Source of the DNA: Candidatus Obscuribacteraceae bacterium
GTDB lineage: Bacteria; Cyanobacteriota; Vampirovibrionia; Obscuribacterales; Obscuribacteraceae
NCBI GenBank assembly: GCA_044226015.1
Contig: JBGAHS010000010.1
Span: forward strand, 128,001-192,000
DNA length: 64,000 bases
Direction: 5' to 3'
A model generated the notes under the pieces. It saw only the letters and a list, made by a program, of their open reading frames with translations. It made no database searches and had not been told where the DNA came from. The position numbers were made by a program, and so were the translations under genes. Positions 8,603 through 21,404 of this stretch are shown piece by piece. Positions within the stretch are counted from its first letter, which is position 1; each line of letters starts with the position of its first letter.

Positions 8603-8786
8603 GATTTTAGCAAATTGCGGCTTGCTTCATCGATGGAAAATTGCCTCCTCATACCTTCGCCGTTAATTCCATGGTGGTATTGGACAATAAGTCGGCGGGG
8701 TTAACCCTACATTTTCTTCCGCAGTTTAGACCTCAGAAGAGGAGGTCCGAAATGCAATAATTTCAACAGTATCTTGGAGATTGTCT

Positions 8787-11700
8787 ATGTCACGTCAGTG
8801 GATCTATTTAGGGCTGTCAGTTTCTGCCGCATGTGCGGTCATACTTCTCAGCTTAAGCTGCGCTAATTCAAACCAATTAGAAGTTCCAGTGGGGAAAAAC
8901 GATAAGATGAGAACTAATGAGAAACTAACATCAGCACTCGGTGGCGAGCAAAGATATCTCACTTTTGTAAGTACAGACAAACCAATCTATAAAATTGGCG
9001 AAAAGGTTTATGTGAAAGGTGTACTGTTGAGCGCAGGCAGTCACAAACCTCTCGATGATAAAACCACTGTTCGTCCGCACATTCAAATTCTTGGTCCAAA
9101 AGGAGATGTGATCGCATCCGGGGGAAGCTCGACAAATGAGAGCATTTGGTCCTTTGGCTGGGATGTTCCAGCAGGACAGGCTGGCGGTGAATATAAGGTT
9201 AAAGTAACTTATCCTTCTGAAGGTTATTGCCCTGCGGAAAGAAAATTCGATGTGCGCGCCTACAGGGCACCAAGGCTGAAATCCCAGATCACATTTATGA
9301 GAGATGGCTACGCTCCGGGAGATAAAGTCACAGCAACACTCGATGTTCATCGTGCCGAAGGTGGCGCGCCCGTAGGAGCTAATGTTTCAGTAAATGCGGT
9401 AGTTGACGGCATTTCGCTGAGTGGAACCTCGTCAAAAGTTGATCAGAATGGATTGGCTTCCATTAGTTTTGACCTTCCGAATAATATTCCGCGCGGCGAA
9501 GGAACTCTTGCGCTTGCCATCGAAGATGGTGGCGTGCTTGAAACAGCATCTAAGACTATTCCCATCCTGATGCAAACCGTTGATCTGCAAATTTTTCCCG
9601 AGGGCGGAGAGCTGGTTTCTGGTTTCAAAAACAGAGTGTACATTCAAGCTAAACAACCGAACGGTAAACCCGCAGATCTAGCTGGGAAAATAATCTGTGA
9701 AAGCGATAACTCTACAGCAGGTTCTTTTAAGACAGAGCACGAAGGACGAGGAAGGTTTGAGTTTAGTCCAGAGCGCGGTAAGAAATACTATTTGACCATA
9801 GATCAACCTTCGGGAATTAAGACGCGCTTCAAATTGCCTGAGGTAATAGCAAGCGGAGCTGTAATTAAAACGGATAAGGATGTCTACGATAAGGCAAGCC
9901 CAATCAAAGTTCACATCGGGTGCAGCGAGAAAGAATATCGGGTGAGCATCTCACAAAAGGAACATGAGCTTGCAGCACAAATAGTTGATAATTCTGTTTC
10001 GGGGAAATCGCAAGCGCTGTCATTTGATTTGCCCGAAAATATTGACGGCGTCTTGACGCTTACGGTTTGGAGCAAAGATGACAAACCACTAGCTGAAAGA
10101 CTTCTGTTCCGCCGTTCAGCTCATCCATTGAATATCACTTTGAAAACGGACATGGACCATTATGTTCCTGGTGATCAAGCTAAAGTTACGGTAAAAGCTA
10201 CTGACGATAAAGGCAAACCTGTTTCAGCAGTTGTAGGTTTGACTATTACAGATGATAGCGTTCTTGAAATGATTGAAAAACGTGAACAGGCGCCTCGTCT
10301 TCCAGTTATGGTATATCTGGAACCCGAAGTAGAAGACTTGGCTGATGCCCATGTTTACATGGACGAGACCAACCCAAATGCCGGAATGGCGACCGACCTC
10401 TTGTTAGGAACTCAGGGGTGGCGTCGGTTTGCCCTAAAAAACTTAAGTGAATTTGTTGCTAGCCATGGTGACAAAGCTAGAAGGGCTGTTGCCCTCAAAA
10501 TCGTTGTGCCCAGCGAGCAACAGGCTGCATGGCACGGTGGTGGCGTGGCTTTCGCTGTTCCACCAGGCGGAATTGCAGATATGAATGCTGTGCGGGCAAT
10601 GCCAGTACCAATGCCGTTAGCTGCTCCTGTGCCTGAAGCTGTGCCTAAATCTGCCGTGCTGGCGATAAAGGAAAATAAGCCAGTGGCAAAACAAGAAGTC
10701 GCAATGGATATGCCAGTTGGTGAATTGAAAAAAATTGCTCAAGCTAAAGATGCCTTCGCTGATGGTGATCAAGGGAAATTGCAAGATGCAATAATGGTCG
10801 CTGATAAGCGCGCTCGTAGAGCGGTTGGTGCTGGATTTGGAGTAGCATTTGACGAAATAGCCCCTGTTAGAAATGATTTTGTTTTTGTTCGTGAATATGC
10901 ACACCAAAACAGAGAAAATAGAGAAGCTAATGATCGCCGTGATTTTACCGAAACTGTTTACTGGAATGCCGGTGTAAAGACGGATGCCACCACAGGTGAG
11001 GCGACTGTTAGTTTTGCCTTGAATGACAGTGTGACGACTTTCAGAATGTTTGCTGACGGGTTTACTCAGGGTGGAGCCATTGGTTCAACTAGCGGTGGCA
11101 TTGAGTCTGTAAGACCATTCTATGCTGAGGCGAAGTTGCCCCTGGAAGTTACGGCGGGTGATCAGATTCTCCTTCCCATCAGTCTTGTTAATTCTGGCAC
11201 CAGTGATCTCACCGAGTTGGGTGTGGGCGTCAATTTGACTGGAGACTTCAAACTAATGGACCTGCAGAGAGTTTCCCAATCTCTCAAAGCCAACGAAAGA
11301 CAACGTTGGATTCAACCAATCAATGTAGGATTTGGAAATGGAAACAAAGAATTTGTTTTAGACACTAAGGCTGGCAAGTATTCCGACAAAGTGACCCGCA
11401 CTCTGCTGGTTAAGCCTAAAGGATTCCCAATAGAAGTGCCTTGCTCTGGTATTTTGGAGGCTGGCAAACCCGCCATTCACACCATCAAGATTCCGGCTGC
11501 GCTCGTGACAGATAGTATTGTTTGTAATACCGCAGTTTATCCTACACCGCTGGCTAATATGACAGAGGCGCTTCAACGTTTAATTCAAGATCCCTATGGT
11601 TGTTTTGAGCAGACCTCCTCAACAAGCTATCCACTGACCATGGCTCAACAATATTTCGTGTCGCATACTGGTGTAGATCCGAAATTAGTGCAAAGTTCTA

Positions 11701-13016
11701 AAGAGAAGTTAGACGCCGGATATAAGCGTCTAGTTAGTTTCTGGTGTCCAGATAAAGGTTACGAATGGTTTGGCGAGAATCCAGGACATGAGGCTCTAAC
11801 AGCTTTCGGTTTATTGCATTTTTCCGATATGTCACAAGTTCGCGATGTCGATAAGACCATGGTGTCTTCAACTCGTGAATGGTTGCTTAAGCAAAGAGAT
11901 GGCAAAGGTGGATTCAATCGCAAACGCCGCGCATTACATTCATGGATTGAGGACAAAGACTGTTCTGATGCTTATATCACCTGGGCGCTGCTTGAGACAG
12001 GTGTACCGCGTGGAGATCTTTCTGCAGAAATTGATCGCCTCAAAATAGCAGCAAAAGAAAGCAAGAATTCTTATGTAAAAGCACTTGCTGCGATTGCTTT
12101 CATCAAGGCTGGTGAAGCAAGCACTGCTGCGCCTCTTCTAGACGAGCTTGCAAAGAAACAGAAGCCAGATGGTAGCGTAGACAGTATTACTGCTTCCATC
12201 GTTGGGTCCGGCGGCGAGTCGCTAATCATTGAAGGAACTTCACTTGCTACCTTAGCCTGGATGTCCGACCCACGCTATACGGGCAACGTCGAGCGCAGCA
12301 TAAAATTCCTTGCTGATTCCTGTCAATCTGGAAGATATGGCTCAACTCAAGCCACGGTTCTTGCTCTACGCGCCATCGTTCAATACGATAAGAATAGAGC
12401 AAGACCAAAGGCAGATGGCAAAGTAAGGGTATTTGTAGATGGACATGCAGTTGGTGATTGGGTTGAATTCACCCCCACAACGCAAGGTGCAATTAAGCTC
12501 CCCGACATTAGTGAATTGTTGACGCCGGGTGAGCATAAATTGGAGTTGCGAATGGAAGGTGGAGGAGCCATGCCATATTCGATGTCCGTGAATTACAATA
12601 CAACTCTTCCAGTAAGCTCAGCAGATTGTAAGTTGGATATTGCTGTGAAACTTGCCGCAGACAAATTGCAAGAAGGCAGTGCGACTGTAGCAAATGTCGT
12701 TGTTCAAAATAAAACCGCTGAAGTTGTGCCCACACCTGTTGCCATTTTGGGGCTACCAGGTGGTCTTGAACCTCGGCATGACCAACTCAAAGAACTCGTG
12801 AAGAAGGGCACCATCGCAGCATATGAAGTTATAGGCAGAGAAGTCGTACTCTATTGGCGCGACATGCAGCCAAACGAGAAAGTTGAGGTGCCTGTCTCTC
12901 TGATTGCAGCGATTCCGGGTAAATACAAGGCTCCGGCAAGTCGAGCCTATCTGTATTACACCGACGAGAATAAGACGTGGGTAGACGGTCTAGAGGTTGA
13001 GATTGCTGCCAAGTAA
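8787..13016 (+). CDS. Alpha-2-macroglobulin family thioester protein
   Basis: TDKPIYKIGE (MG domain), FTETVYW, thioester PYGCFEQ, STQATVLAL, PGKYKAPASRAYLYY; GGAG RBS before ATG 8787. Confidence 0.92.
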   Translation: MSRQWIYLGLSVSAACAVILLSLSCANSNQLEVPVGKNDKMRTNEKLTSALGGEQRYLTFVSTDKPIYKIGEKVYVKGVLLSAGSHKPLDDKTTVRPHIQILGPKGDVIASGGSSTNESIWSFGWDVPAGQAGGEYKVKVTYPSEGYCPAERKFDVRAYRAPRLKSQITFMRDGYAPGDKVTATLDVHRAEGGAPVGANVSVNAVVDGISLSGTSSKVDQNGLASISFDLPNNIPRGEGTLALAIEDGGVLETASKTIPILMQTVDLQIFPEGGELVSGFKNRVYIQAKQPNGKPADLAGKIICESDNSTAGSFKTEHEGRGRFEFSPERGKKYYLTIDQPSGIKTRFKLPEVIASGAVIKTDKDVYDKASPIKVHIGCSEKEYRVSISQKEHELAAQIVDNSVSGKSQALSFDLPENIDGVLTLTVWSKDDKPLAERLLFRRSAHPLNITLKTDMDHYVPGDQAKVTVKATDDKGKPVSAVVGLTITDDSVLEMIEKREQAPRLPVMVYLEPEVEDLADAHVYMDETNPNAGMATDLLLGTQGWRRFALKNLSEFVASHGDKARRAVALKIVVPSEQQAAWHGGGVAFAVPPGGIADMNAVRAMPVPMPLAAPVPEAVPKSAVLAIKENKPVAKQEVAMDMPVGELKKIAQAKDAFADGDQGKLQDAIMVADKRARRAVGAGFGVAFDEIAPVRNDFVFVREYAHQNRENREANDRRDFTETVYWNAGVKTDATTGEATVSFALNDSVTTFRMFADGFTQGGAIGSTSGGIESVRPFYAEAKLPLEVTAGDQILLPISLVNSGTSDLTELGVGVNLTGDFKLMDLQRVSQSLKANERQRWIQPINVGFGNGNKEFVLDTKAGKYSDKVTRTLLVKPKGFPIEVPCSGILEAGKPAIHTIKIPAALVTDSIVCNTAVYPTPLANMTEALQRLIQDPYGCFEQTSSTSYPLTMAQQYFVSHTGVDPKLVQSSKEKLDAGYKRLVSFWCPDKGYEWFGENPGHEALTAFGLLHFSDMSQVRDVDKTMVSSTREWLLKQRDGKGGFNRKRRALHSWIEDKDCSDAYITWALLETGVPRGDLSAEIDRLKIAAKESKNSYVKALAAIAFIKAGEASTAAPLLDELAKKQKPDGSVDSITASIVGSGGESLIIEGTSLATLAWMSDPRYTGNVERSIKFLADSCQSGRYGSTQATVLALRAIVQYDKNRARPKADGKVRVFVDGHAVGDWVEFTPTTQGAIKLPDISELLTPGEHKLELRMEGGGAMPYSMSVNYNTTLPVSSADCKLDIAVKLAADKLQEGSATVANVVVQNKTAEVVPTPVAILGLPGGLEPRHDQLKELVKKGTIAAYEVIGREVVLYWRDMQPNEKVEVPVSLIAAIPGKYKAPASRAYLYYTDENKTWVDGLEVEIAAK

Positions 13017-13127: not shown

Positions 13128-13988
13128 ATGCGTAACCCTGCAGTTCCCGAGTCGCTAGATAGTTGGTGGATTCTTCACCGCATGTTCGCATTTGATCGTC
13201 TTGCCTGGGACAAATTACAACAAGACGAACGCACGGGAATAATCAAAGAAGCTATCGCCGCCTTCGAAAAATTGAAGAACGGCGCTGAAACCGACCTCGG
13301 TTTAGCCCAGATGTTGGGACATAAAGCTGATTTGATGCTTACACACTACAGCAAGAATTACGAGGGACTTGCACACGCTCAAACGGTGCTCGATAAGCTT
13401 CATCTTTCTGAATTCCTGATTGCGACGACTTCATATGTTTCGATTTTGGAACTTGGACTGTATGATGCGACCGGCAAAATCCACGCCACTCTGGCAGAAC
13501 AAGGTTTGGCTCCTCATTCTGATGAATGGACGAAGGCTTTTGACGAGTGGCTCGCTGGACAGGAAAAGGTTCCTCATCATGCCGGACGCCTCTGGGCTCG
13601 CATACCTCAACGTCGTTATGTGTGCTTCTACCCAATGAACAAGAAGCGCGGCGAAGAAGTGAATTGGTACATGTTGCCATTCGGCGAACGCGCAAAATTG
13701 ATGCTTGATCATGGACGTATTGGACGTACCTTCAGCGGACTAGTCACCCAAGTTATTTCTGGTTCGATTGGCTACGATGAGTTTGAATGGGGCGTAGACC
13801 TCTACTCTGACGATCCGGTTGTATTCAAGAAACTTGTGTACGAAATGCGATTTGATGAAGCCAGCGCTAAATATGGCGAATTTGGCGACTTCTATTCTGG
13901 TGTTCAATTCTCAATCGACCAGTTGGCTACATACCTCGATGGAGATGCTGTTCCTGCTTTGAATACACTTCAGACATCGCATCGCTAG
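13128..13988 (+). CDS. hemQ: Coproheme decarboxylase (HemQ/ChdC), chlorite dismutase family
   Basis: GHKADLM, CFYPMNKKR, NWYMLP, HG..GR, VTQVISGS.G.D..EWGV, FKKLVYEMRFDE.SA.YGEFG. Confidence 0.88.
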   Translation: MRNPAVPESLDSWWILHRMFAFDRLAWDKLQQDERTGIIKEAIAAFEKLKNGAETDLGLAQMLGHKADLMLTHYSKNYEGLAHAQTVLDKLHLSEFLIATTSYVSILELGLYDATGKIHATLAEQGLAPHSDEWTKAFDEWLAGQEKVPHHAGRLWARIPQRRYVCFYPMNKKRGEEVNWYMLPFGERAKLMLDHGRIGRTFSGLVTQVISGSIGYDEFEWGVDLYSDDPVVFKKLVYEMRFDEASAKYGEFGDFYSGVQFSIDQLATYLDGDAVPALNTLQTSHR

Positions 13989-14316: not shown

Positions 14317-16986
14317 ATGGCTGAACTGGAAAAAGATTCAAACACGAAGAATGAAGCGCACTCAAAACCAAATTCCCACTTGGCTGCAGAAGCCATGGAA
14401 GACTACCAGATCGGTGATAAGACAGTTCGATTACCCGGTGGGTTTCAGAGGAATGAACCAAAAGAAGATCGCACATATTTTCCGGCGCCAGACCTGAACA
14501 AAAACCTTGTTCCGAAAGGAAGTCCTGATGCCACCACAGGTGCGGCGCCTCGTGGCACTCTAGACTCACTCAAGCATAACGTTGGTGAAACAATAGGTGA
14601 TATTCTTGGCTATTCTGTGCGCTGGAAGGCGCAGCTAGCAGACAAATTCACTCAAGATAAATCATGGGAAGAATTTGGCAAAGACCGTAGCTTCTTTGGA
14701 CGAGCTCTAGATCTTGCGCGTCCAGTTAATCGAAGAAATCAGATTGAAGATCATAACCTGCAATCTGCCTACCCGAAAAACGAACAAACAGGTCATGTGT
14801 CAAAAGACATGGCGTGCTCGGCCGCATCTGAGGTCTCAAGAAGTGTTGATGGTACATGCAATGATTTGAAAGACCCGGCAATGGGCGCAGCTGGAACACG
14901 CTTCCAGTACAATACTCGTCCTGACGATAAATACGCAATAAACGATCCACCATTGATGGATGCTGCAAAGCTGTTGGATCGAAAGGAATTTAAAGAGCTA
15001 CCAGTATTGAATCTTCTTGGTGTTGCCTCTCTGCAAGGCAATGTTCATGACTGGATGGATCATGGCAAACACCAGAATATGGCTGGTGGCATGCACACGA
15101 TTGAACTTCCTGATGATCATCCTATTCGACAAAAGTACGGTCAAACGGAAATGAAGATTCCGAAGCTTTTGATCGATTCGACCCGCACCGAAAGTGATGG
15201 CAAAGAACAGATTCGGCAGACTTATGAGAACACTGTCACTCACTGGTGGGACGCCTCTGAAATTTATGGCTCTGACGCAGAAACCGCATCAAGGCTTCGT
15301 GCTCATAAAGATGGCAAAATGCGTCTCACCGACGATGGATTGCTTCCTATAGGCCCGCAAGGAGTGCCAGACACAGGGTTTAACCAGAACTGGAATCCTC
15401 TTCTTGAAGTGGTGCATACGCTTTACGTTCGAGAGCATAATTCTGTTGCTGATATGCTCACGAAAGCATATCCACAAAAAGATTTTGAGCAATGGAAGGG
15501 CAAGTTGCCCGAAATACTCAAACCTATGTTCGGTGAAAAGCTGCCCGACAAGCTAAGCGATGAACAATACGATGAATTTATCTATAGTCGCGCTCGGCTC
15601 ATCACCGCCGCAGAAAAGGCGAAGATTCACACCGTTGATTGGACGCCAGTCGCTCTGAACAATCCAACAATGACTGAAGCTATGCGCGACAACTACGGGC
15701 AAGAGAAAGTCGGCTGGAGAGCAAACGTCAACGAACATGAAATTGGCGGTATCTGGGGCAACAAAACTCATCAAGCTGGTGTTCCCTATGCGATGGAAGA
15801 AGACTTTGTGCAGTCGTATCAGCAGATGCATGGGCTGGTTCCTGATCAGTTCAAACTTTATGACCACAACTCTGGCAAGCAAATTGCTGATATCCCCATG
15901 GGAGCAGCCTTGCAGGCAAACTCACGCAAAGTCATTGAAGCAGCTGGCTTTGATAATGTTCTCTATTCCATGGGAGTCGATAAGGCGGGTCAGATAACTG
16001 CTGGCAACCATCCGAATTTTATGCGCGATTTGAACGTTCGTGGCAATTATGTCGATATGGCCGCGGTTGATATTTTGCGCGGGCGTGAGAAACATCTGCC
16101 AAGGTACAACGAATACTTGCGGCAGATGCATGAAAAACCTGTTAGCAGTTTCGAAGAACTGGTTCCCAATAACGTTGAATTGCGCGAAGCTATTCGCAAA
16201 GTCTACAACAATGATATTGAGAAAGTTGATACCGTCATCGGTTCATTGGCTGAATGGCCGGATCGCACTCCCAAGACAATGGGATTCTCTGCTTCGACTT
16301 TCCTCGAGTTTATATTGATGGCGTCTCGCAGAGTCCAGGCTGACCGCTTCTACACTGAAGACTTTCGTCCCGAAATATATACTCCCGAGGGAATCGCCAG
16401 AATTCGTAATCTCAATGGTATGCGGGACGTAATCGAGCGCAACGCTCCAAATCTAAAAGAAGCTGTGAGCACCAGAGATAGTTCCTTCCACCCTCTCGGA
16501 AAGGATCCAATTCCGCTGAATAACTCAGGCATCGATATGTTGCCCACCAATGACCTGCAATCACAGCTTGCCGCTTTCGATGCAGATCGAAATGGTGAGC
16601 TGAGCTACGGAGAGTTAGCCGATGGATATAGAGCAATGGGCTATAACGCTGCGCACGCCTACTTGAAAGCTGCTGATGCTCGCTACCAATTCGGTAAGGT
16701 TATTGCTGATTTTAAGCCAACTACCGCAGGAATTTATAAAGCAGATGGCAGTATAGATCAGACTCGAATTGATTCGCTTTTCAAAGGGCGCGACTCTGTG
16801 TCTATTTCTGAGGCTGAGAATTTTGCTGGACTACGCTCAAATGGACCTGTGTCACAGGAATTTGCACTGAGCCAACTCGGTGTTCTAAAGTCCGCTGGGT
16901 CAAAATCAGTCACCAGAGACGCTTTCGTCAAGGCGATGAGAGGCGACATCTTGCGCCAGAAGATCGCAGAACAGAAAGCAAAATAG
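14317..16986 (+). CDS. Peroxidase-cyclooxygenase superfamily heme enzyme (alpha-dioxygenase-like) with C-terminal EF-hand/caleosin-like domain
   Basis: RSVDGTCND, HDWMDH, WWDASEIYG, REHN, AKIHTVDWT, VPY...F...Y..MH, DILRGRE..LPRYNE; EF loop DADRNGELSYGE; AGGAG RBS. Confidence 0.88.
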   Translation: MAELEKDSNTKNEAHSKPNSHLAAEAMEDYQIGDKTVRLPGGFQRNEPKEDRTYFPAPDLNKNLVPKGSPDATTGAAPRGTLDSLKHNVGETIGDILGYSVRWKAQLADKFTQDKSWEEFGKDRSFFGRALDLARPVNRRNQIEDHNLQSAYPKNEQTGHVSKDMACSAASEVSRSVDGTCNDLKDPAMGAAGTRFQYNTRPDDKYAINDPPLMDAAKLLDRKEFKELPVLNLLGVASLQGNVHDWMDHGKHQNMAGGMHTIELPDDHPIRQKYGQTEMKIPKLLIDSTRTESDGKEQIRQTYENTVTHWWDASEIYGSDAETASRLRAHKDGKMRLTDDGLLPIGPQGVPDTGFNQNWNPLLEVVHTLYVREHNSVADMLTKAYPQKDFEQWKGKLPEILKPMFGEKLPDKLSDEQYDEFIYSRARLITAAEKAKIHTVDWTPVALNNPTMTEAMRDNYGQEKVGWRANVNEHEIGGIWGNKTHQAGVPYAMEEDFVQSYQQMHGLVPDQFKLYDHNSGKQIADIPMGAALQANSRKVIEAAGFDNVLYSMGVDKAGQITAGNHPNFMRDLNVRGNYVDMAAVDILRGREKHLPRYNEYLRQMHEKPVSSFEELVPNNVELREAIRKVYNNDIEKVDTVIGSLAEWPDRTPKTMGFSASTFLEFILMASRRVQADRFYTEDFRPEIYTPEGIARIRNLNGMRDVIERNAPNLKEAVSTRDSSFHPLGKDPIPLNNSGIDMLPTNDLQSQLAAFDADRNGELSYGELADGYRAMGYNAAHAYLKAADARYQFGKVIADFKPTTAGIYKADGSIDQTRIDSLFKGRDSVSISEAENFAGLRSNGPVSQEFALSQLGVLKSAGSKSVTRDAFVKAMRGDILRQKIAEQKAK

Positions 16987-17214: not shown

Positions 17215-18603
17215 TTATTTCATCGAGATCGATTGACTCGTTGAAGGTGATCTGTGCGCTGTGCTCTTTGCTCTTTCTGCAGCATTTATGCCAGCGAGAT
17301 ACTTCGCAAGATCTTTTATTTCTGCATCGTTAGCTGCCAGTGGTGGCATGATGTTGGAATAGTTGTTCTTTTGAGGGTCTCGCTCCTTGAGGATTTGGAG
17401 GAAGCTCACAATCGCCTGCTCATCACGCTCTCCTATCAGCTTCTTCATGCTGCGGTAGCCTTTTTCAGTATGACACGCCATGCACTGATATCGGAAAACA
17501 ATCTCACCGTTGTGCATTTGGTCTGTCGGAGTAGCAGCTGTTAGTGCAGTCGACCACTTACCTCTGTGAAGGAATCCCTCATCAGCTATCTGTGCGACTT
17601 CATCTTTATGGATTCCATTTGAGTATATGTAATTGTAGACCACGTATGGTTTACGCAACATCTCTCTCATCCACTCTGTTGTACCTGTTGCAGCAAAACC
17701 GCAGATCATGAAAAGCATCGCGATCTTAAAGGTGAAGCCCTTCGGATTCAAGAATGGTCCGAAAAATGCAAATAGAAGAATTGTTCCTGATAGCACAAGA
17801 CTTGTATAAAGCGCTCGTGCGAGAATCGAGAAGTTGCCGACTCCAGAATTCTGAATTCCAGTAAAAATGGTTTGCGCCACAGAATGCGGAATTTGTGTCA
17901 AAAACCAGATCATGCAGAGAGGTCCAAGCAGGAATACTGGAAGGAGCCATTTTGCGCAGTATCTGACCATGAATGTTCTGAATTTTGGTTCTTCGATTCT
18001 GGTGCAGGTAACAAGTGCGTACATTCCGGCAATCGCCAACATGATGAGAAGTCGAATGGCAAGCGACGGGAAGTATGTCGGGTTGAATACTCCATCAAAC
18101 CACCAGTGGCTTGTTAACCACTTGCCAGGCGTTAGCATGAATGTAAGAACGCCGTTGATGATTACCAGCGTAAACACCGAGAATATTGCATATAGTCGAG
18201 CTAGCAGCAAGTGTTGTTCGCGCGAAATGCGGTCCCAAGTGTAGTAGTACGCAAATGCTGTGGCGAGCTCAGCCACGAAGAATAGGTACTCTTCTGCCCA
18301 AGCTAACGTGAAACATTGAATCAATGAAGCAATGCCGTCGGGGCTGACAAGGCTGACGGAAAACCAGATGGCCACACCTGTTACTGCACCAGCCACGGTG
18401 GTCAGCAATACGAAGAAACGCGAGTGCGTTTTTAAGAAGTTGTAGATTCGTTCATCCTTCTTTTTGTAAGCAAGCTGCTCAGCAAATGCGAGATAGATGC
18501 CACCGCCCACCGCGAAATGGGAGATGAAGATGTGAATGATCGAAATGATACCAATTACCCAGGTACCGCCTAGATTTGGTACGACCCAGAGCGGATAGTT
18601 CAT
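17215..18603 (-). CDS. Cytochrome bd subunit I (CydA)-like protein fused to a C-terminal monoheme cytochrome c
   Basis: HIFISHFAVGGG, WAEEYLFFVAE, EWMREMLRKPYV (GW...E.GRQPW-like), CMACH...MPP; ATG 18603 overlaps the cytochrome b stop (ATGA). Confidence 0.85.
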   Translation of the reverse strand: MNYPLWVVPNLGGTWVIGIISIIHIFISHFAVGGGIYLAFAEQLAYKKKDERIYNFLKTHSRFFVLLTTVAGAVTGVAIWFSVSLVSPDGIASLIQCFTLAWAEEYLFFVAELATAFAYYYTWDRISREQHLLLARLYAIFSVFTLVIINGVLTFMLTPGKWLTSHWWFDGVFNPTYFPSLAIRLLIMLAIAGMYALVTCTRIEEPKFRTFMVRYCAKWLLPVFLLGPLCMIWFLTQIPHSVAQTIFTGIQNSGVGNFSILARALYTSLVLSGTILLFAFFGPFLNPKGFTFKIAMLFMICGFAATGTTEWMREMLRKPYVVYNYIYSNGIHKDEVAQIADEGFLHRGKWSTALTAATPTDQMHNGEIVFRYQCMACHTEKGYRSMKKLIGERDEQAIVSFLQILKERDPQKNNYSNIMPPLAANDAEIKDLAKYLAGINAAERAKSTAHRSPSTSQSISMK

Positions 18604-19694
18604 GATAAAGCTCCCCACAATGAAAAGAAGATCACACCAAGTAAGACGAGAATTCCAAATGCCGTAGACATCTTAGAACGTGATTCGTCTGCTCCGGTGT
18701 CGTAAAGCGGAACCAGGATAAAGCCCAGTCCAACCAGCGCCATGAGTATGATGCCGAACAATTCACCCTCGATAGGTCCAACCATTGGAGGAATGAGCTT
18801 GAGGAATTGGAATGGGGCAAGGAAGTACCATTCTGGCTTAATTCCAAGCGGAGCAGCTCCGAATGGATCGGCTTCAGGTCCGATTCCCCATGGACATAAC
18901 ATAGTTAGAACGAATAGTACATTACAAGCAAATATCCAAACCAGAATGTCTTTGAAAACAAAATCTGGGAAGAATTTCTCGTACTTTTTCTTCTCGTCAG
19001 ATAGCTTTTTGAAGAATGCTGGTTCGGACATACCAAGCACCTGAATGAAAAGTAAATGTGCTCCCAGTATTGCCATTGTCACCAGCGGTAATACTGCGAC
19101 GTGAATCATGAAAAAGCGCGAGATAGTAGCCTGCGAGACCATATCTCCGCCTCTCAACATGTATGCGATAAGTCCACCAACTAGAGGGACCTTAGATGCT
19201 ACGTCGATACCAATCTTTGTTGCAAAGAAAGAAACGTCGTCCCATGGAAGGAGATAGCCAGTGAAACCAAATGCCAGGCATACAACAAGCATTACAAGCC
19301 CAGTCCACCAGGTGAACTCTCTTGGTGCTCTGTAGGCTTTCATAAAATAGGTGCTGAACAAGTGAACGATGACCACAGCGATCATCAAATTAGCACTCCA
19401 GCTATGTAGCGAGCGTATAAACCAACCAAAGTTGATTTGTGAGTTGATCTTTAGAATGCTCGCATGTGCCGAGTTGATTTCGGGGACGTAATAGACCATT
19501 AGTAGTACACCGGTTATTACTTGCACCGCGAACAAAATCGCCGCAATGCCTCCCATGTAGTACCAGACCGAATGCTTGTGGACCGGTACCTTTTTCTTCT
19601 CGGCTAAGTGTTGCAATTCTGCAATTGGCAGTCTTTCAGCCAGAAAGTTTTGCAGGAAATTGCCATTTCTCGATCGTGATGATTCTGATACCAC
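18600..19694 (-). CDS. Cytochrome b of a Rieske/cytochrome b complex (b and subunit IV in one chain)
   Basis: YYMGG, RSLHSWSAN...VH, FTGYLLPWD, second His pair, PEWY. Confidence 0.95.
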   Translation of the reverse strand: MVSESSRSRNGNFLQNFLAERLPIAELQHLAEKKKVPVHKHSVWYYMGGIAAILFAVQVITGVLLMVYYVPEINSAHASILKINSQINFGWFIRSLHSWSANLMIAVVIVHLFSTYFMKAYRAPREFTWWTGLVMLVVCLAFGFTGYLLPWDDVSFFATKIGIDVASKVPLVGGLIAYMLRGGDMVSQATISRFFMIHVAVLPLVTMAILGAHLLFIQVLGMSEPAFFKKLSDEKKKYEKFFPDFVFKDILVWIFACNVLFVLTMLCPWGIGPEADPFGAAPLGIKPEWYFLAPFQFLKLIPPMVGPIEGELFGIILMALVGLGFILVPLYDTGADESRSKMSTAFGILVLLGVIFFSLWGALS

Positions 19695-19696
19695 TT

Positions 19697-20236
19697 CTAT
19701 GCCCTCGAAACAATGATTTTGCCGTTAACCACTTCGGCTTTTAGTGCAGCCAGTGGTTTCGGCGGCGGTCCCGCTATGTTCTTTCCTGTATTCGGATCGT
19801 ACTCGCCGCCGTGACATGCGCAGTAAATTTTTTGCATATCATTGCGGAACTGAACCGTACAGCCTAAATGGGTGCAAATTGCATTGAATGCATGGAGTTG
19901 CCCATCATCTGTATGAATCAGCAATGCGGGGAACGAACCAAAGCGAAAGTTTCTGCCAGTTCCTTTTGGCAGTTCTTCCACCTTGCAAACTTCCAGGCTT
20001 GTAACGTTGGCTTTTCCGTCATTGTCGCCAGGTGGAGGATTCAGATAAGCCACGATGGGGGAGATCGTCAGTCCGCCCCAGGCAACAGCGCAAGTGGCAA
20101 AGCAGCCTTTGATGAATTTGCCTCTGTCCAGGCCTTCGTCATCGTCATGACCATTTGAACAAGCACCGCCACCGCATGAGCGTTCGCAGTTCTTGCTTGA
20201 GGCAAGATCTTCGTTTTCTGTCTGGGTCTTATCCAT
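19697..20236 (-). CDS. Rieske 2Fe-2S subunit
   Basis: CTHLGC and CACHGG boxes, GPPPKPL, N-terminal TM helix. Confidence 0.95.
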   Translation of the reverse strand: MDKTQTENEDLASSKNCERSCGGGACSNGHDDDEGLDRGKFIKGCFATCAVAWGGLTISPIVAYLNPPPGDNDGKANVTSLEVCKVEELPKGTGRNFRFGSFPALLIHTDDGQLHAFNAICTHLGCTVQFRNDMQKIYCACHGGEYDPNTGKNIAGPPPKPLAALKAEVVNGKIIVSRA

Positions 20237-21404
20237 GACTTACTTCTCCTAAAGTGGCAGCTGCTGTGAGTTCTGAGATTGGCTTCTGGTAGCTTCTTAG
20301 AACCAGAGCTGAGAGCCAGACCAGGTACCAGATTAGAGCCACTGTTGAAATGAGGAATACAGCAAGCAGATCCCATTGTGTTGAGACTGCCACTAAATCC
20401 GGTTTCACATGTGGGTTTAGGTGAAATAGACGTAGCTGGTGTCGGTTGACAATCATCGCCAGAATAATTAGTGCATTCGTGATCAGCGTGGCCAGAAATG
20501 CTTTGCCATTTCCATTTCCTGATGCGATAGTGCTAGTGCAAATCGCTACTAGAGTGAGAGCCATCGATAGTCCAAATACTGCAGTAGCGATTTGATCGCC
20601 TCCCATGAAGTTTGCTGCGAATTCAGGCGGCATAACTTTTAGGAACCAGAGCCCCACAGGAATTTGAATTACAGTAGAAATGAGGAATATTTTTGAGCCT
20701 GTTTTGATCATCCACTTTGAGAATTCTGCTTCCTTTTTCGCAATGTAGAGACCAAACATACCTAGAGTCATACCTGCGACGGCAAACGACGCGACGAAAA
20801 AGTGGAGATAACGAGGAATCAACGTGACCTCAGTAGAGTTCAAGTTCATTCCCTTCGCGCTATGTTGGTACATCGCTAGCCATTTTTCAGGATGCAACAT
20901 AAGCGTCATATTGTTAGAGAAAAGATATCCAACTAATGCAAAACCTACGCTCATGAATAAAAGGAGCATAGAAGCTCTGGCGGCTGTCTTTTCATTTTCT
21001 TGTCCCTTCAATGTGCGGTAGACCACAATGTAGGACAGGTAATAGGAAATCAATATGAGCAAGAGTACTGAGATCCAGGGTACTGCCATAATGATTGATG
21101 ATGTATAGAATGCAGGACCGTAAATTAGTTGCAAGAATAAGAGCGGAACAATGCCCTGCGTTATTGCAAATGAGATGAATAGCGGTAGCGATATAGCTAG
21201 CGCTTTAGCAGCTCGGTATGCATACGAGGTTTGATCTTTCTTTCCTAATGCAAACAGGGCGGTGGTTATAAATCCTCCGCCCAAAACAACATTCATCGGT
21301 AGTGCATGCAAGAAAAAGCCTAGAACCAGTAGCGTCTGCATCAGCCAAACAGGCAGTGGGAACGGTAGCGGTTGGTAGCTTGGGATTAAGTGCGCAAGAT
21401 CCAT
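20229..21404 (-). CDS. Second CydA-like polytopic membrane protein
   Basis: HALPMNVVLGGG, PRYLHFFVASFAVAG (CydA R.hH-like), about 9-10 TM helices; first gene of the operon and overlaps the Rieske start. Confidence 0.65.
   Translation of the reverse strand: MDLAHLIPSYQPLPFPLPVWLMQTLLVLGFFLHALPMNVVLGGGFITTALFALGKKDQTSYAYRAAKALAISLPLFISFAITQGIVPLLFLQLIYGPAFYTSSIIMAVPWISVLLLILISYYLSYIVVYRTLKGQENEKTAARASMLLLFMSVGFALVGYLFSNNMTLMLHPEKWLAMYQHSAKGMNLNSTEVTLIPRYLHFFVASFAVAGMTLGMFGLYIAKKEAEFSKWMIKTGSKIFLISTVIQIPVGLWFLKVMPPEFAANFMGGDQIATAVFGLSMALTLVAICTSTIASGNGNGKAFLATLITNALIILAMIVNRHQLRLFHLNPHVKPDLVAVSTQWDLLAVFLISTVALIWYLVWLSALVLRSYQKPISELTAAATLGEVSHG

Follow-up and report, generated by a model that had tools for sequence, protein, structure and literature searches.

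A predicted alpha-dioxygenase fused to a caleosin-derived domain in an Obscuribacterales bacterium

Introduction

What would a protein do that joins, in a single chain, a fatty-acid alpha-dioxygenase (alpha-DOX) and a relative of the caleosins? The question is raised by a gene on the forward strand of a 64,000-nucleotide stretch of DNA (hereafter the window; contig JBGAHS010000010.1, positions 128,001 to 192,000, assembly GCA_044226015.1) from a Candidatus Obscuribacteraceae bacterium. A reading of the window made from its letters alone, without database searches (the sequence-only reading), had proposed a single-chain, Ca2+-regulated oxylipin enzyme with a degenerate caleosin module. The same two families are brought together in Arabidopsis, where alpha-DOX1 and CLO3 meet on leaf lipid droplets in the formation of 2-HOT; there, they are two proteins and the caleosin is catalytic (relayed in PMC13247531), whereas the window encodes one chain with a disarmed caleosin. 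Bacterial alpha-DOX (PMC8720084, PMC9305512), bacterial caleosins (PMC5957377) and DOX-P450 fusions are already known, and the alpha-DOX/caleosin fusion is a new architecture built from these known parts. A literature search confined largely to papers outside subscription found neither a peroxidase-caleosin fusion nor oxylipin enzymes described for Obscuribacterales. We conclude, with a probability of about 0.55, that the protein acts on fatty acids as an alpha-dioxygenase and that its caleosin-derived tail is an accessory domain without catalytic function.

Results

The catalytic core is of the alpha-dioxygenase type

The open reading frame (ORF) translates without a stop into 889 residues and has an AGGAG-like site immediately 5' of its ATG (Table 1). 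The motifs on which the sequence-only reading relied lie where it placed them (HDWMDH at 15046, WWDASEIYG at 15244, AKIHTVDWT at 15619, LQSQL at 16555 and GIYKADG at 16729), and the alpha-DOX-type body that it proposed is borne out by a PF03098 domain, by conserved residues and by the closest solved relatives, rice alpha-DOX (4kvj, E 1e-79) and Arabidopsis alpha-DOX1 (4hhr, E 5e-76). Cyclooxygenase (COX; E 1e-5 or weaker) and lactoperoxidase are far weaker relatives of the core. The domain, haem ligands, tyrosine, carboxylate clamp and channel are those of the plant (rice 4kvj/4kvk, Arabidopsis 4hhr) and cyanobacterial (CsDOX, CalDOX, LepDOX) enzymes, from which the window protein differs in a YxxxH motif, a Gln in place of rice R380, an altered distal helix (SLQGNVH against WIQFMVH in rice), a 27-residue insertion near residues 390-416, a charged leader and the caleosin-derived C-terminus.

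The protein belongs to a clade of 13 proteins with 56-100% identity, all further relatives being at most 40% identical; two genome copies bring the alignment to 15 rows, 13 tailed and 2 tailless. The rice chain is numbered three higher than in the paper, an offset verified on the Y-to-F mutant chain 4kvl. Rice H157, H311, W315, T316, M325 and F375 map to H244, H438, W442, T443, M452 and F497, and rice Y379, H382, F549, F552, A556 and R559 to Y501, H505, F662, F665, A669 and R672, all invariant in the 15 rows. The set comprises the pair of haem histidines (H244, H505), the catalytic tyrosine with its stacking phenylalanines (Y501, F497, F665) and the clamp that holds the fatty-acid carboxylate (H438, T443, R672). 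I666 (rice I553) is Val in one row, and the position of rice A331 is variable. The core also carries its own Ca2+-site motif, separate from the EF-hand of the tail, in the loop T308-S314, which we take to be the structural Ca2+ site of the superfamily. Residue roles and 13 channel positions were taken from PMC8720084, with Y379 read for its 'F379'; 11 of the 13 could be mapped, of which 10 are identical to rice and the remaining one, A331, is Asp.

The N-terminal region does not align to the plant chains but is homologous to that of bacterial relatives, and contains one candidate amphipathic helix (residues 124-141, moment 0.52); the base region within it has no match in Pfam. NCBIfam gave no match to the whole protein, and matched the tail at the level of the EF loop only. 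Dual oxidases likewise combine PF03098 and EF-hand in one chain (PMC4420034), but the window protein has neither a transmembrane nor an NADPH-oxidase part (no such Pfam domain; best 19-residue hydropathy 0.85), keeps its peroxidase ligands intact and has an EF-hand of caleosin origin. Many of the bacterial alpha-DOX-like relatives P0015-P0121 carry other fusions, namely N-terminal TPR, catalase-like and C-terminal P450 domains.

Table 1. Features of the gene and members of ORF family X
Feature	Position	Strand	Remarks
Complete gene (889 aa), comprising leader, base region, catalytic domain of alpha-DOX type, linker and caleosin-derived tail	14317..16986	+	
Charged N-terminal leader, ~31 aa, ending ..LAAEA..	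14317..14409	+	resembles other N-termini of the genome
Base region (aa 75-170); homologue of the stretch that precedes the catalytic domain in other bacterial alpha-DOX-like proteins	14539..14826	+	hhalign 97.8%, E 9e-13
Peroxidase-cyclooxygenase domain (PF03098), aa 175-714, alpha-dioxygenase type	14839..16458	+	Pfam E 1e-82; PDB relatives
Distal Q240, H244, D245 (rice Q153, H157, D158)	15034..15051	+	invariant in 15/15 rows
Loop T308-x-W310-x-D312-x-S314	15238..15258	+	invariant in 15/15
H438, W442, T443 (rice H311, W315, T316), which position the carboxylate and C-alpha of the fatty acid	15628..15645	+	
F497, catalytic Y501, proximal H505; one added residue (YQQMH, rice YRMH); rice R380 replaced by Q	15805..15831	+	
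F662, F665, I666, A669, R672 (rice F549, F552, I553, A556, R559), forming the channel wall together with the carboxylate Arg	16300..16332	+	
Linker; tailless paralogues end a few residues beyond	16501..16545	+	
Caleosin-derived tail, aa 744-889 (146 aa), haem-less, central hydrophobic segment shortened	16546..16983	+	
Q750, at the first caleosin haem His position (His in 9/13 tails, Gln in 4/13)	16564..16566	+	
Canonical 12-residue EF-hand loop DADRNGELSYGE	16579..16614	+	
GIYKADG, cf. caleosin GxYDxxG; preceding His motif of caleosins gone	16729..16749	+	
Family X members	L030:8598-9311; L031:5278-5931; L031:9201-9794; L047; L052; L091; C-terminus of L022 frame; G000:C6:678522-679103		

One added residue between the tyrosine and the proximal histidine

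The sequence-only reading had overlooked the spacing between the catalytic tyrosine and the proximal histidine, along with the tailless paralogues and the leader described below. The YxxH spacing of alpha-dioxygenases, which positions the tyrosine relative to the haem, is shared by 106 of 107 other relatives and, among 80 metagenome alpha-DOX loci, by 76 (the remaining four have no readable motif); all 15 clade rows read YxxxH. The sole exception among the relatives, P0063, is alpha-DOX-like, lies outside the clade and has apparently acquired YxxxH separately. The added residue could alter the chemistry, in that a core that binds fatty acids would act as a peroxidase, yield another product or oxygenate slowly. 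Its constancy in the clade favours this, as do the altered distal helix and the F-R-F-G-H sequence of other PF03098 peroxidases of class relatives (L014, L015), which places an aromatic residue four before the His. Yet the tyrosine, both stacking phenylalanines and the entire clamp are invariant, none of which a plain peroxidase would need, and P0063 combines the identical spacing with an intact clamp. We regard altered chemistry as unlikely. The retention of clamp and stacking residues throughout argues that Y501 would keep the place predicted from rice Y379. The core is probably an active alpha-DOX despite its spacing.

The tail derives from a caleosin

Taken alone, the window tail would give no decision on its origin, since its Pfam Caleosin score (17.1 bits, cut-off 27) falls short and is no better than that for EF-hand_6 (18.9 bits). 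Orthologous tails decide for caleosin: two of the three tested pass the PF05042 cut-off (30.0 and 31.3 bits), and the third scores 23.9. A profile of four tails, compared with 1.84 billion protein representatives, gave 73 matches. Three of these come from the clade or represent a stand-alone tail, and the majority of the remainder are multi-EF proteins that match over the loop only. Eight non-fusion matches span the whole tail, and a Pfam Caleosin scan that covered 15 of the 73 matches placed seven of these eight above the cut-off (P0125 scores 22.4). The tail profile matches four caleosins with both haem histidines (two-His caleosins) at 98.7% over 141 columns, and the part behind the EF-hand alone does so at 95.9% (E 6e-9), as compared with 5.3% for eight multi-EF proteins. 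These caleosins were chosen by their likeness to the tail, so the profile-profile scores lean high, which counts against the reading; Pfam and the ESM Atlas, where the top matches of the tail are Caleosin clusters (0.90), are free of this bias. No caleosin chain was among the 60 of 190 PDB matches that were listed.

The tail is collinear with the whole of the caleosin domain (PF05042; AtCLO1, AfPXG and the Sorangium cellulosum copies), from the EF-hand helix pair through GxYDxxG to the C-terminal helix, and the alignment forms a graded series that leads from two-His caleosins over stand-alone forms without the second His and the stand-alone, tail-like P0123 and P0125 to the fused tails. A generic EF-hand domain with a chance likeness to caleosins, as the slightly higher EF-hand_6 score and the many loop-only matches might suggest, is largely refuted by a collinear match that survives removal of the EF-hand and is absent against EF proteins. 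The tail is almost certainly caleosin-derived. P0123, P0125, P0143, P0150, P0168, P0186 and P0187 are stand-alone caleosin-like proteins with the first His and without the second, and form a haem-altered or haem-less subfamily.

The tail is disarmed

Caleosins are defined by an EF-hand, two haem histidines and a lipid-binding centre (PMC5957377, PMC5216026). The window tail has neither histidine, no proline knot and a short, weakly hydrophobic centre, and it is fused behind a dioxygenase; the alignment confirms the loss of histidines and knot that the sequence-only reading had suspected. The second His is absent from all 13 tails, as is the proline knot, and the first is absent from four including that of the window; its replacement by Gln has occurred on at least three separate branches, as expected for a residue that is no longer needed. 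In the window tail, 40 residues separate the EF loop from GxYDxxG (40-50 among the tails) versus 54-61 in two-His caleosins, and the best 19-residue hydropathy of this segment is 0.27 versus 0.66-1.36; the segment contains a single Pro, and the bacterial two-His caleosins compared likewise lack a full knot. Because these features are missing, the tail is not expected to be a peroxygenase, and it is very probably non-catalytic in the window protein.

The EF-hand loop DADRNGELSYGE is canonical, as had been claimed (D1, D3, N5, G6, L8, S9, E12), and is so in 10 of the 13 tails; judging from these residues, the window tail likely binds Ca2+. The tail codons are under purifying selection, weaker than that on the core (six pairs; pN 0.22-0.39, pS 0.66-0.91).

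Distribution of the fusion and loss of the tail

Among the 41 genomes searched, the clade turned up in four, which belong to a single Obscuribacterales genus, and a search for the architecture elsewhere returned the fused tail in 3 of 401 genomes of the class. One genome holds a tandem pair, and another tailed and tailless copies together. The tailless P0010 and P0011 have a true stop just past the linker and no tail downstream. The loss looks secondary, because the three most divergent rows carry tails. In the best tree of the 15 rows, rooted on the most divergent row and not on an outgroup, P0010 and P0011 stand apart, with a single shared loss not rejected (approximately unbiased test, p-AU 0.067).

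Among 107 genomes of the order, Pfam Caleosin matched in two, both times in fusions, and no intact stand-alone caleosin was found. Searches for stand-alone tails gave one fusion fragment only when based on words and two proteins when based on regions; the profile search did better. A match in G215 was rejected as a caleosin-type tail, being a small EF-hand ORF. No caleosin-like ORF was found near the 80 metagenome alpha-DOX loci, many of which are short.

The fusion does not stem from an assembly join, because it recurs in the three genomes of the class and because single contigs cover the whole gene, unbroken, in two of three sequencing runs examined (both possible sources of the window DNA); the third run, X4, covers the gene in pieces only. 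Runs containing most of the gene are bioreactor and activated-sludge metagenomes, and no RNA run is among those listed as containing it. GC content is 0.45-0.49 across the gene, similar to 0.46-0.50 for the genome.

A second peroxidase-caleosin fusion

The same genome encodes another protein, of 1382 residues (L005:6942-11090; G000:C1), in which a catalase-like domain, a PF03098 domain with YxxH and hydrophobic helices are followed by a C-terminal piece with a weak Caleosin match. Frames of this second family (1200-1400 residues) occur in 7 of 41 genomes, with relatives L010, L011, L012, L022, L027 and L028. Over 100 columns, a profile built from six of its C-termini matches the two-His caleosins at 91.5%, as against 2.2% for window-type tails and 1.5% for EF proteins. 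Judging from these profiles, the piece is most likely the C-terminal half of a caleosin, without His or EF-hand, acquired in a separate fusion, and the second family is a candidate multi-step oxylipin enzyme. By eye, L012 has the catalase-like stretch behind the caleosin half instead. The genome also encodes a stand-alone catalase-related protein (G000:C6:828852-829832, 327 residues, 28% identity to the catalase-like domain), and L005:14787-16391 encodes a low-complexity protein of 534 residues whose N-terminus is charged and which contains tandem repeats, each about 21 residues long.

An ORF family of 195-216 residues, family X, adjoins three of six copies of the gene but not the window gene itself. 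It also lies near 3 of the 80 other alpha-DOX loci, and one second-family protein carries it as a fusion. Its core of about 150 residues has no Pfam or PDB match, and the ESM Atlas links it to unnamed bacterial clusters (0.93) and to GXWXG/DUF4334 (0.85). Family X is possibly a product-handling partner.

The N-terminal leader

The leader contains no Sec signal by eye. A clade leader profile run against 3690 ORFs matched nine other N-termini at E<1 (four at E<0.1), compared with zero to four in ten shuffles (none at E<0.1) and one for internal segments (none). Eight of the nine were scanned and comprise two M4 proteases, a GH25 lysozyme, an RHS protein, three proteins without Pfam match and one ABC transporter. 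An iterated profile with 22 matches is circular and was not used as a count. Leader-like charged N-termini (L122-L141) also stand on unrelated proteins, including M4, M28 and S8/S53 proteases and GH25, RHS and deaminase-toxin domain proteins. The shared leader is possibly an undescribed export tag. In the 92% complete genome no FlhA/type III secretion system (T3SS), flagellar, type VI secretion system (T6SS) sheath, VirB4, phage-sheath, tail-tube or WXG100 marker was found, with the control of one of the searches matching nowhere; ATPases of pilus/type II secretion systems (T2SS) are present. Export of the window protein, as its N-terminus suggests, is a tentative proposal.

Neighbouring genes

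Upstream, at 13128-13988 (+), lies a chlorite-dismutase-family haem protein (PF06778), presumably of the coproheme decarboxylase type. An operon with this gene was rejected: in two relatives it lies on the opposite strand, about 4 kb from the gene. Further upstream (8781-13016, +) is a bacterial protein of the alpha-2-macroglobulin family with 1411 residues. Downstream, on the minus strand (17215-21404), a four-gene respiratory cluster encodes a membrane protein, a Rieske protein, a cytochrome b and a fusion of cytochrome bd subunit I-like and cytochrome c parts. Promoter (4 versus 4.8) and terminator (4 versus 3.2) scans were at chance level.

Discussion

Known alpha-DOX enzymes abstract a hydrogen from C2 by means of a tyrosyl radical and form a 2-hydroperoxide that spontaneously loses CO2 to give the Cn-1 aldehyde (PMC9305512). 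The residues for this chemistry are read from the sequence of the window protein, the mechanism is carried over from the known enzymes, and the activity follows by analogy. Peroxide would oxidize the haem held by H244 and H505, and the haem would then oxidize Y501; the Y501 radical would abstract a hydrogen from C2 of the fatty acid, whose position is fixed by H438, T443 and R672, and addition of O2 followed by decarboxylation would release the aldehyde. The tail, having no haem ligands, would be unable to reduce the hydroperoxide as proposed for the plant caleosin. Instead, it would most likely adopt a helical EF-hand fold, bind Ca2+ and assist the enzyme in settling at a partner or at the surface of lipids. 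Its sequence makes it most likely that the tail docks or tunes the enzyme and has no chemistry of its own; we infer that it is useful but dispensable.

Several observations weigh against this picture. YxxxH together with Gln for rice R380 could uncouple the tyrosine from the haem, and rice L53 and R57 had no mappable counterpart. The hydrophobic segment of the tail is weak and no strongly amphipathic helix is apparent in it, so that docking is without direct support. The window tail also evolves faster than the core (pN 0.35-0.39 versus 0.11-0.13) and sits on a long branch (0.67). Lastly, 2 of the 15 clade members have an intact core and no tail, and the EF loop is broken in 3 of the 13 tails (P0012, P0013 and P0014). 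For these last two reasons, and because the core has a Ca2+-site motif of its own, Ca2+ control is unproven, and control of catalysis by Ca2+ cannot be general across the clade; a switching of activity by Ca2+ bound to the tail appears doubtful.

Were the tail to bind haem through the first His and convert the 2-hydroperoxide by reduction into the 2-hydroxy acid, the protein would be a two-step enzyme, performing in one chain what is proposed for the pair alpha-DOX1/CLO3. That His persists in nine tails and in stand-alone caleosins without the second His, and PMC5216026 names the N-proximal His as haem ligand. Dioxygenases coupled to domains that use the hydroperoxide are known, as in the fungal DOX-P450 fusions (linoleate diol synthases) and, with a separate catalase-related lyase, Nostoc 10S-DOX (PMC13049297, PMC4420034); relatives of the window protein are fused to P450 (P0113) or catalase (P0073). 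In the window protein, by contrast, the partner is a caleosin that is no longer a haem enzyme: both histidines are gone, and the shortened lipid-binding segment is one whose deletion abolished or severely reduced activity in AfPXG (PMC5808235). Of the sequence-only proposal, the alpha-DOX body and the degenerate module thus stand, while both plant steps in one chain are not supported, because the histidines required for caleosin peroxygenase activity are missing; a two-step enzyme is very improbable. Alternatively, the tail may be a passenger of an old fusion, retained only for folding or oligomer stability and now being lost, a view that draws on the clean loss at the same linker in two members that are not sisters in the best tree, on the three broken EF loops and on the fast change in the window lineage. 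It is hard to reconcile with a tail that is whole and in frame in 13 of 15 rows while synonymous sites are near saturation, with tail-like proteins that exist alone (P0123, P0125), and with the separate fusion of a caleosin half in a second family, and we think it improbable.

The leader allows for a different setting, in which the enzyme is exported against the lipids of prey or host cells, with the caleosin module directing it to lipid droplets or membranes and with Ca2+ met outside the cell arming it. This proposal is compatible with the favoured reading on chemistry. The leader-profile matches exceed those of the shuffles, several of them are of hydrolase or toxin type, and the stand-alone tail P0123 begins, by eye, with a leader-like stretch. 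Against it, the leader matches give a weak signal, in which one match is clearly false, pilus/T2SS ATPases are the only secretion components found, and no host or prey is indicated by the data; we deem it unlikely. The boldest form of the favoured reading holds that the caleosin fold physically docks alpha-DOX-type enzymes, was fused haem-less twice in one order and, in the window version, is exported by an undescribed tag and armed by Ca2+ to hit the lipids of other cells. The main ground for a docking role is that there are two fusions, both of them haem-less; the proposal in full is a long shot.

A tiny clade in an uncultured host limits the significance of these results. The clade does offer ready controls, namely variants of a single enzyme at 56-77% identity that differ in whether they have the tail, its His or an intact EF loop. 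Insolubility is a stated obstacle to the use of alpha-DOX in fatty-aldehyde biocatalysis (PMC9305512), and a weakly hydrophobic alpha-DOX might be easier to handle. The YxxxH spacing tests how rigid the tyrosine-haem geometry of COX/DOX enzymes is required to be, and if the docking reading is true, this register would still support tyrosyl-radical catalysis. The evidence for a partnership of alpha-DOX1 and caleosin on plant lipid droplets consists of co-location and the chemistry of the products; that the two families are found fused in nature, twice and each time with the caleosin haem site missing, points to a structural side of that partnership. If so, plant CLO3 would recruit alpha-DOX1 to lipid droplets by direct contact.

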